Below, piece by piece: positions 2,159-5,100 of a stretch of 34,897 nucleotides of DNA. The DNA comes from Circinaria calcarea. Its lineage: Eukaryota. The translations under genes were made by a program, and so were the position numbers. The stretch is taken from assembly GCA_051942165.1 (NCBI GenBank), contig JAVECS010000034.1, forward strand, positions 1 to 34,897, read 5' to 3'. Numbering within the stretch: position 1 is the first letter of the stretch; every line of letters begins with the position of its first letter. Under the pieces are notes generated by a model. It was not told the DNA's origin and searched no databases. It saw only the letters and a list, made by a program, of their open reading frames with translations.

Positions 2159-5100
2159 TCATGGGTTCAACCTTTTCCTTGCAGGCTGTGGCCTCATTTC
2201 GTTGTAGCAATCCTCAAAGATGGTGGGCTTCGTACACAAGTCGCCCTCTCGTAAGTTCAACCTCCTGACGACCTTGAAGGCCCCGGTGCCGACACTCATG
2301 GATTGTCCCATGATGATGCATTCGGAAACACCCTCGATCTTATCGTTCTTCATCTTCCAAGCAGCCTCGAACAAATGATCCGGCGTCTTCTCGAAACTTG
2401 CCAACTGCAACACACTGTCCCTCATCTTGCTTAATCCAAATCTCGTAATGCCGAGTATTTCGCCCTTGTAGGTCATAACATCCGCGAGCAGTTGCATGTG
2501 ACGCGGGTCTATGTCCATGTCACCCATAACAAGCCCGATTTCGTCGACGATGGTCTTGCGAGCGGCCTCGATGCCGAGAACCTCCCGCATCTCCATAACG
2601 GAATTCGTCTTAGTAGCGAACCCGTTGACTCCCTCGGTGGTCATGCAAGTACGTAGACCGTACCCCTCAACTAGCAAAGCATTGTGGTTCTTGTCATCAG
2701 TTTTGATGATTGCTCGAGATGCCTCCGGGTAGCCGCGGATAACAATGTCTGGAAGTACACGCTTGATTGCTTGTATGCGTTGGTACATTTCCATTGGTGC
2801 CTTGGTCTTACCTCCAGGTTGGGTTTGAGGTTGGGCCTGGGCTTGCGGTCGAATTCGGGTTCGGCTTATGGGATGGGCTTTGGATTTGCTGGTTTTACCT
2901 TTGTCTTTGCTTTTGGTGGCTTTACCTGAGACCTTGTTCTTGCTGGTTTCCCTTGAATTTATAGCTTTGCCGGTTTCACCCGGAACTTTGCTTTTACTGA
3001 CTTTACCCGATCTCTTACTTTTGCTGGTTTCGCTTGAGGTTTTGGTCTTGGTCTTGTTGCCCTTGCCTGAAGCTTTGCTTTTGCTAATCTTATCCAGAAC
3101 CTTACTCTTGCTGCTTTTGCCTGAAAGTTTGCTTTTGGTGACATTGCTTGGGGTTTGAGATGTGTCTGCCTTGCTTAGGACTTTGCTCTTGACGACCTTA
3201 CTTAGTGTTTTGACCCTGATGACCCGTCTTGGAGCTCTGATTCTCATAGCCGTACTTGGACCTCCCGATTCGATCTGGATCCGGATTACGTCTTTCCATG
3301 CCTTAATGTTACTATCATCTAGCTTCAACTTCTTCTGTTTCTTGATAGCATCCACAACGTCAAAGGTAGTGACATCTAGCTGTAGTCTCCCGATTGTCTC
3401 GTAATCTAGCTTCAGTGTCAGGTAGTACTGGTCGGCTGAATGACAGTCTTCTATATAGTAAACGATCTAATGTGGATTTAGCATCACCGACTCTAGAGGA
3501 GAATGTAGAGAGGACTAACATCCTTCAAGAAAGTCTTCTCAATACGACCCTTGACTACTCGTGCTGCGATGATGTCTTCACTACTCACGAGCTCGCAACT
3601 GATCACAGGCGTGCTGATGACCTTGGAAGCGTTGATAATCTCCTTGATTCGTGGGACACCTTGCGTGATGCTCATGCCGGCAACACCTGCAAAATGGAAA
3701 GTCTTCAGGGTCATTTGTGTGCCAGGTTCTCCTATAGACTGAGCCCCAACAGCCCCGACAGCATGACCAGGTTCGACCTGAGCTTTCTTGTATTTGACGA
3801 GGCAGGCTTTGACAAAAGCTATCAGTGCAGCTTTAGATAGCTTGGCCGTACGATTAACTGAGTCTTGGGCTATTTCTACTGCAATCCTGGCTTAGCCAAG
3901 AGTTTCAGATAAGATTTATAATCGGTTACTCACCCTCATCGAAGTTCCTCCAATTGGTCTCATCCTTGGATAGACCGGACGGCAAACCGAGTCGTTCTCG
4001 AGTAGAGGCTTGCGCCATGGCTTTTGTACGAACATAGGCTCCCACTTCGTCTAGAAAGTCTCGCGCACTTTCTAGTTGATCGATGGCGGCTGGACTGCGG
4101 TCTGAGTAATCCAAGACCTCCCCCCCGAGGGCTGTTCGGGTCAGTTTATTTCGCTCTTTCGCCAGCAGCTCCTCGCAAGTATCCAGAATTTCCCATGGCA
4201 GTAAACTTCTATCATCATTATCCCAAGTAGTAGCCTGACCCCGGTTAGCATAACACCATTGGTAGCGGGAGCTGAAAACCTACCTCGGCATGGGTGAATG
4301 TTCTGTCAAAATGTACAGGTTTGGCTTTCCCCTCCATATCGACCGGATCGAGCTTGTCGTCGCCATATTGAAACTGGATGACGTTTGATGAAGAGTTTCG
4401 GACCGTATCGTCGTACTGCGACGATAGATCCTCAAGGGACTTCATCAAACGCCGAGACATATACCCGGTCTCGGCTGTCTTGACGGCTGTGTCGACAAGA
4501 CCTTCACGCCCTGAAATTGCGTGGAAGAGGAATTCCGTGGGAGTTAAGCCCGAGAAAAAGCTATTCCGGACGAACCCCTTTGATGGAGGCTGACGTGCAT
4601 TTTTCGGAAAGTGTGGCAAACTTCGGTCTTGAAACCCGTCCGCTACACGCTTGCCTCCAATAATTTGCTGTCCTACAACGGCCACCATCTGTGAGACGTT
4701 GATGTTCGATCCCTTTGACCCAGATGTAGCCATGATCAGCGGCGAGTTCCACCTGCTCAGTTCGGATATACAATGATCTCCGGCTTGTTGCCGGACTTTA
4801 CTCAGGATACCCGATATAAGATTCTCCATTGTTTGCTCCTCGTCACAACCTGGTGCCTTGGCAAGCCTGCCTTCCTTGTATTTTACTATCAATGCATCAC
4901 ATTCAGCGTATGCTCTTTCAACGAGCTGTTTCTTCAGCTCGATAAGCTTCCCGCCTGGGTACACGTCGCTGATCCCAATTGAGAAACCCTGATTCGTTAG
5001 CCATCGAGCGGATAGTTTAGCCAGACGATTCATAGACTGAACTGCCGCATCTGGACCGTAATCTCTAAGTGTGACATAGAAGACCGAGTCTTTTTTGCCC

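Follow-up and report, generated by a model that had tools for sequence, protein, structure and literature searches.

What is a run of 155 lysine- and serine-rich residues doing in the jaw of the largest subunit of RNA polymerase III (Pol III)? The question is raised by a stretch of Circinaria calcarea DNA (GenBank assembly GCA_051942165.1, contig JAVECS010000034.1, positions 1 to 34,897; this whole stretch of 34,897 nucleotides is hereafter the window), in which the gene for this subunit, RPC1 (C160 in yeast), carries an in-frame insertion built largely from nine-residue lysine/serine repeats. Taken as a whole, the explanation toward which we lean, with modest conviction, is that the insertion is translated and represents a lineage-specific expansion of a loop on the surface of the RPC1 jaw, a basic arm apparently selected for its charge and length.

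The identity of the gene, assigned to RPC1 by an earlier reading of the same letters (the original prediction), is borne out by several comparisons. It occupies 2159..7211 on the minus strand and, with boundaries read from the sequence, consists of six exons (7211-7120, 7065-6804, 6755-4284, 4234-3934, 3878-3520 and 3466-2159, the last including the stop) that encode 1597 amino acids; the ATG lies at 7211 and the stop at 2159-2161, and no stop interrupts the joined frame. Its introns are 48-55 nucleotides (nt) long, with clear donors and branch points. Splicing of four of the five is visible in RNA contigs from relatives, and the remaining one, 3519-3467, is a predicted intron supported by the continuity of the protein with its homologs. 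The Pfam domains RNA_pol_Rpb1_1 to _5 occur in order across the three largest exons (E 1.6e-53 to 4.1e-18), and among the sequences of solved structures the best match is yeast C160 (E 4.8e-79), followed by human RPC1 (3.2e-55), Rpb1 (1.2e-22) and A190 (6.8e-15). When an AlphaFold2 model of the last exon, made with a 50-row alignment, was superposed on solved structures, rows 1-22 were all Pol III chains, headed by 7z1l_A (Z 13.2, root-mean-square deviation 6.9 Å, 180 aligned residues), and the best Pol II row was 7o4i_A (Z 8.5, 8.5 Å, 188 aligned). Modeling onto yeast Pol III, which the original prediction had named as a check, thus places model residues 1-339 on residues 1169-1370 of yeast C160 (7z1l_A). 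The catalytic NADFDGDEM motif sits in exon 6755-4284, and the protein ends about 30 residues past domain 5 with no heptad-repeat C-terminal domain, features that we take to be marks of the RPC1/C160 family. The top protein matches come from lichen-forming or allied Lecanoromycetes (Agyrium, Xylographa, Lambiella and Icmadophila). The gene is RPC1/C160, nearer to the largest subunit of Pol III than to those of Pol II and Pol I.

The insertion lies in the last exon (2159..3466, minus strand; 435 codons plus stop), which encodes the jaw, the insertion itself and the C-terminal cleft part of Rpb1 domain 5. It begins directly after the residues IRIQIE and runs for 155 codons, 2804..3268 on the minus strand, corresponding to residues 1229-1383 of the protein and 67-221 of the exon, with homolog anchors on both sides. 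The insertion proposed at 2795-3265 was therefore real and in frame, and only its exact span had to be corrected. In the alignment with yeast C160, residues 2-65 of the exon pair with 1170-1234 and residues 217-424 with 1246-1455, so that about 150 residues in the window RPC1 stand against about 11 (1235-1245) in the yeast protein. The inserted residues include 33 Lys, 29 Ser and 16 Thr, 3 Asp, 3 Glu and no aromatics at all, for a net charge of +37.

Most of the insertion is a repeat core of 115 residues (2870..3214, minus strand) made of about 12-13 degenerate units with the consensus V-S-G-K-T-S-K-S-K. The core holds 32 Lys and 26 Ser, close to the 31 Lys in 110 residues originally counted. 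Lysine autocorrelation peaks at lags of 9, 18 and 27 residues (z = 6.1, 4.5 and 4.7 against 2000 shuffles) and is 0 at lag 1, no two lysines of the core being adjacent. Nine units keep a clean nine-residue register and three or four further ones vary in length, so that the earlier figure of 12 nonapeptides is fair as a length (115/9 = 12.8). At the protein level the core is thus a coding tandem repeat, its units following one another head to tail at a constant period. In the DNA, the nine units have a mean pairwise identity of 55%, and Tandem Repeats Finder reported no 27-nt array at the core, only a 6-nt row. A nine-residue lysine period that coexists with so low a DNA identity marks the core as an old, decayed 27-nt coding minisatellite. 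Codon usage is skewed in the insertion, where AAA makes up 20 of the 33 Lys codons (25 of 78 elsewhere in the gene) and AGC 15 of the 29 Ser codons (8 of 63 elsewhere), as expected of an amplified unit. The linker described after the repeats is also present, as an 11-residue Q/P-rich stretch at the C-terminal end of the insertion (2816..2848, minus strand); it is altered but conserved (QAQPQPQTRP) in P0128, a 383-residue open reading frame (ORF) from a separate assembly that carries the same insert.

Is the segment translated, or does it leave the transcript as an intron? The original prediction saw no convincing intron signals, and we reach the same view. When the segment is shuffled with its dinucleotides preserved, the frame of the insertion stays open in only 11 of 5000 cases (p ~0.002), and the five other frames across it contain 2-11 stops each. 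We scanned the region between 3300 and 2760 for GT..AG pairs that preserve the frame and enclose at least 40 nt, and applied a loose filter that asks for three of four donor positions, a YAG acceptor and a CTNAN branch within the final 40 nt. Only one of the 219 pairs passes, a weak candidate (GTAAGG...CAG) from 3201 to 3121 that would remove 81 nt and has 38 nt between branch and acceptor; no set of donor, branch and acceptor among the 219 removes the whole insertion. This candidate and several GTAAG-type strings on the sense strand are what the sequence offers in favor of splicing, under which the segment would be cut from the mRNA wholly, as one long in-frame intron, or partly, as short internal introns, leaving a short mature loop. 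An intron of about 465 nt would, however, be nine times as long as the gene's own 48-55 nt introns.

Relatives bear on the same question. Genomic DNA from related metagenome loci is open, in 20 of 20 cases, through a loop of 36-51 nt (12-17 codons) at the site, which argues that no ancestral intron existed there. In P0128 the insert is likewise open and in frame and is 70% conserved at the protein level, with extra blocks of 18 residues (two units) and 4 residues, and all indels between the two inserts are whole codons. Uninterrupted ORFs also run through long loops at the site in P0126, P0129 and P0130 (100 residues), P0012 (46), P0131 (51) and P0018 (94). That the insertion might be an assembly artifact is ruled out, since P0128 has the same insert in an independent assembly. 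As for RNA, five runs contained 0.05-0.13 of the gene's words, and four RNA runs (X2-X5, all metatranscriptomes) were compared with the gene; their contigs are 90-99% alike to the window and so come from relatives and not from this strain. These runs show four of the five RPC1 introns spliced and no joint across the segment. What tells against our explanation at this point is that the relatives' contigs stop at 2751/2756 and at 3262, with none covering or bridging 2757-3261, a gap compatible with either reading, and that P0128 is an ORF called from DNA rather than a transcript. Because the RNA contigs leave the segment uncovered, its translation is inferred; on these indirect grounds, from sequence, we consider it very probable that the insertion is translated, and removal by splicing seems to us very improbable.

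Where would such a translated segment sit in the enzyme? In the AlphaFold2 model the first 70 exon residues have block means of 83-96 in the predicted local distance difference test (pLDDT), and residues 72-220 fall below 50 as coil with no secondary structure, so that the insertion is predicted to be intrinsically disordered. It is framed by two elements that align with yeast C160. The last strand of the jaw beta-sheet, VIRIQI (3272..3289, minus strand; AlphaFold strand 60-65), comes directly before it, with the yeast protein aligned up to 1234, and a 14-residue helix (2759..2800, minus strand; AlphaFold helix 223-236) comes directly after it, with the yeast protein aligned from 1246. The insertion starts about 115 residues C-terminal to a 35-residue stretch of exon 5 (3628..3732, minus strand, from the translation) that we take, from Rpb1-family motifs, to be the trigger-loop region, which agrees with the placement first proposed, in the jaw and C-terminal to the trigger loop. 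The four N-terminal strands of the model match the C160 jaw sheet, and the arm would accordingly be expected to emerge on the jaw-lobe side of the cleft. This surface has known partners: one report describes the C160 jaw sheet as the docking place of the C11 linker and a portion of the C53 N-terminal region, which extend it (PMC10050235), and another has the RPC10 linker running along the RPC1 jaw (PMC8837262).

How unusual is a long loop at this position? Among 120 homologs, the loop was measured in 111, the other nine being excluded (eight in which an anchor was missing and one of zero length). The median length across these fungal homologs is 15 residues, with an interquartile range of 13-18; 13 of the 111 loops have at least 30 residues, and two have at least 40. 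A short loop is thus the norm in fungal RPC1, as originally supposed, and the alignment of orthologs that had been suggested as a check finds a long K/S-rich loop to be uncommon among the 111. Charge is distributed differently, in that 102 loops are net positive, seven neutral and two negative. With so many positive loops at so short a median length, the basic character of the loop appears to be ancestral and its length not.

The phylogenetic tree places these lengths in context. It has 31 rows, namely 30 of the 131 fetched proteins and the joined protein of the window, which falls in a ten-row group (99% in the Shimodaira-Hasegawa-like approximate likelihood-ratio test, SH-aLRT) with Agyrium, Icmadophila, Xylographa, Lambiella and others. 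Seven rows of the group have long loops (the window 155 residues, P0128 177, P0126 100, Icmadophila 94, P0131 51, P0012 46 and Agyrium 32) and three have short ones (Xylographa, Lambiella and P0005, 12 residues each). The placement of P0128 in the tree is unreliable, with an end branch of 4.04, a flagged composition and a midpoint root dragged by it; the long branch is probably due to its low-complexity start having been misaligned. At this site, long basic loops are restricted to certain lineages, not unique within the clade, and rare elsewhere. The lineage-specificity claimed for the insertion holds insofar as it is absent from most relatives, but has to be loosened, because the loops of Icmadophila (94 residues) and of others (100 and 46-51 residues) are also long and basic.

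Sequence searches draw the circle more tightly. In word-indexed searches, recognizable insert sequence is common to the window and P0128 only: a search with the insert region among proteins of 239-762 residues gave P0128 as its one match, and among proteins of 763-2175 residues not one of the 978 candidates scored attained E 0.001. An exhaustive HMMER search with exon residues 40-260 gave seven matches at E <=0.001, P0126 among them; another, P0127, is a carrier-protein repeat protein and was set aside as irrelevant. The ESM Atlas search with the repeat core gave no usable match, and the protein searches revealed no homology of the insert to another protein family. The ends of the loop are faintly alike across lineages, a 13-residue stretch of the window matching KAPKPITQARPS in Agyrium. 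P0012 and P0131, which belong to one 90% cluster, differ in the loop by an additional Ser and by a duplication of KALS that keeps the frame, suggesting that slippage acts at this loop in other lineages too. In the literature that we searched, a limited collection, no paper describes a basic insertion in the RPC1 jaw.

Two further observations concern the same region in other fungi. P0018, the RPC1 of Icmadophila ericetorum, has, besides its 94-residue K/S/T-rich loop, an insertion of about 62 residues rich in Lys, Asp and Glu in the next loop; this second insertion falls at the KTDD/KNHN loop of the window, where the other aligned homologs are empty. A different loop of 31-33 residues is common to P0083, P0089, P0097, P0098, P0108, P0111, P0113, P0115 and P0120 at the insertion site and bears an Ala/Arg/Lys-rich motif, AAARKAARVRAAA, distinct from the window insert. 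Its named carriers are Sordariales-type genera (such as Podospora, Chaetomidium and Thermothelomyces), and this loop, itself conserved, elaborates the site a second time and independently.

Does selection act on the arm, or is it merely tolerated? The comparison of the window with P0128 speaks to both possibilities. Identity is 104 of 148 aligned residues in the insert and 205 of 211 in the C-terminal flank, so that 30% of insert residues differ as against 3% of the flank, a roughly tenfold gap in rate, and the number of units differs as well, which amounts to copy-number variation between close relatives. Lysines are nonetheless retained at 30 of 33 positions, compared with 74 of 115 for the other residues (Fisher p 0.0025), and the net charge change over the aligned insert positions is zero, the charge-changing substitutions canceling out. 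Rapid change in which lysines are preferentially kept suggests selection on charge and length rather than on sequence. Several findings count against so selective an interpretation. The lysine-retention test was made on a periodic, Lys-rich alignment that favors K-K columns. Among the nine units of the window, mismatches are nearly flat over the codon positions (135/143/161), from which it appears that most unit positions drift as if unconstrained; the protein-level constraint claimed in the original prediction is therefore compatible with the lysines kept between species but finds little sign in the divergence of the units. In addition, the Xylographa/Lambiella branch of the same clade does well with a 12-residue loop, which implies that Pol III as such can do without the arm.

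These findings feed the most serious competing explanation, in which the insert is a neutral passenger: a translated but functionless product of slippage, housed in a loop where any filler would do as long as it is soluble and disordered, and persisting only because frameshifts or stops would destroy the essential C-terminal 210 residues. The tenfold faster evolution of the insert, the varying number of units and the flat mismatches are what such a passenger would show, and it also accommodates clade loop lengths that range from 12 to 177 residues with little sequence likeness between lineages, as well as the second, unrelated low-complexity insert in the next loop of Icmadophila, which suggests general tolerance. 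It accounts less well for the preferential retention of lysines and the constancy of net charge, for the 102 of 111 homolog loops that are net positive, which argues for selected positive charge at the site, and for the fact that the insert is deleted in neither of the two diverged relatives. On balance we regard the neutral passenger as rather unlikely, though it deserves to be taken seriously.

Returning to the selected, charge-bearing arm, we propose the following course of events. The starting point would have been the short loop of about 15 residues, already basic, found in almost all filamentous ascomycetes. A 27-nt (nine-codon) unit encoding approximately V-S-G-K-T-S-K-S-K would have been amplified there by slippage or unequal exchange, and the array would then have decayed at the DNA level. 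The product would be the present arm, 155 residues long, free of aromatics, charged at +37 and presumably disordered, which changes some ten times faster than the surrounding enzyme and differs in unit number between close relatives. Held on the jaw-lobe side of the cleft, it could act as a flexible polycationic tether, and such a tether would raise the non-specific electrostatic affinity of the enzyme for downstream DNA, for the transcript or for an acidic partner. This tether mechanism, which we draw by analogy, is put forward tentatively and with more doubt than confidence. A bolder version, which we consider unlikely, would make the arm a selected DNA or RNA tether on the Pol III jaw, a positive-charge counterpart of the acidic Pol I expander, evolved repeatedly by related lichen-forming fungi from the same basic loop. 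Under this version the arm would alter the hold on downstream DNA, read-through of chromatin or recycling on short genes, and phosphorylation of serines beside the lysines could tune it.

Might the charge instead serve to direct the protein within the cell? The arm could be a polybasic signal for nuclear or nucleolar localization or retention of the subunit or of the whole enzyme, and its dense K/R clusters and its net charge of +37 are compatible with such a role. Classical nuclear localization signals are clusters of adjacent basic residues, however, and the KSK spacing of the arm, with its lag-1 lysine autocorrelation of 0, offers no adjacent basic run. Relatives with 12-residue loops, moreover, import Pol III without the arm. 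A precedent for the general idea is found in a report on exported proteins of Plasmodium, in which the expansion of lysine-rich repeats is said to create localization sequences (PMC5207086). A targeting function nonetheless appears to us quite improbable.

Set against known systems, the arm of our favored explanation has several partial likenesses. With the C-terminal domain of histone H1 and with SPKK tails it shares a Lys/Ser-rich, disordered and highly positive character. H1 tails, however, are rich in Ala and Pro, whereas the insert has 21% Lys and is rich in Ser and Thr, and the motif [ST]P.[KR] (S/TPKK) has no match in its 155 residues. The description "histone-H1-like" in the original prediction accordingly amounts to a resemblance in composition and does not hold beyond that. 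As a repeat-driven, fast-evolving, in-frame expansion of a surface loop in an essential enzyme, the insertion is most like the low-complexity insertions of conserved proteins. Plasmodium RNA polymerase III has enlarged variable regions, although Plasmodium-type inserts in RNA polymerase subunits belong to another organism and have another composition. In kind, then, the loop expansion is unusual but not unprecedented: it is a repeat-driven, low-complexity surface-loop insertion.

The parallel with the Pol I expander, also drawn originally, holds in part. The yeast A190 expander comprises residues 1337-1439 and is a disordered jaw insertion with phosphoserines (PMC6104688, PMC8660638), and it is negatively charged (PMC8660638). 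The expander of A190/RPA1 is, like the window insert, a large, disordered and lineage-variable jaw insertion in the largest subunit of a polymerase. It differs in belonging to Pol I rather than Pol III and in being acidic, so that it mimics DNA in the cleft, which the basic window arm, at +37, cannot do. The loops probably differ too, judging by sequence offsets: A190 residue 1481 aligns to exon residue 226, and the expander ends about 40 residues before the post-insertion helix, which places it, probably, in an earlier jaw loop, distinct from that of the insert. A functional analogy lies further afield, in actinobacterial topoisomerase I (Streptomyces TopA), where tandem lysine-rich repeats of variable number likewise adorn a conserved nucleic-acid enzyme and are reported to stabilize the enzyme-DNA complex and raise processivity (PMC5714199). 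The TopA repeats form a bacterial C-terminal tail with a different repeat unit and no homology to the window arm, and their function has been demonstrated, whereas for the window arm a tether role is proposed by analogy.

The surroundings of the gene contain further repeats and two other coding regions. Upstream of RPC1, some 180-750 nt from its start at 7211, a tandem array at 7389-7958 contains a 19-nt unit about 27 times and scores also at periods of 39 and 58 nt; long plus-strand frames stay open through it, but it shows no sign of being a gene. At 68-170, GA-rich tandem repeats of 12, 15 and 45 nt belong to an open frame that continues beyond the start of the window and encodes a low-complexity stretch rich in Glu, Gly, Lys and Ala; these 35 kb thus contain a further coding repeat. 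Converging with the 3' end of RPC1 is a gene for a MYST-family histone acetyltransferase (832-1913, plus strand); its zf-MYST (832-1455) and MOZ_SAS (1452-1913) parts are in different frames, so that an intron likely separates them. Also on the plus strand, an ORF at 8749-9849 contains a glycosyltransferase DXD sugar-binding region (PF04488, E 1.8e-13).

What would such an arm mean for Pol III and for the fungi that carry it? For annotation, the insertion segment is to be kept as coding sequence. If the arm is neutral, the jaw loop would be a permissive insertion site, useful for tagging Pol III, and the gene would be an example of coding minisatellites inflating essential proteins in lichen-forming fungi. 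A functional arm would constitute a natural experiment in which a non-specific nucleic-acid-binding tail has been added at the DNA-entry side of a eukaryotic RNA polymerase, and would be the mirror image of the acidic insertion that has a regulatory role in the Pol I jaw.

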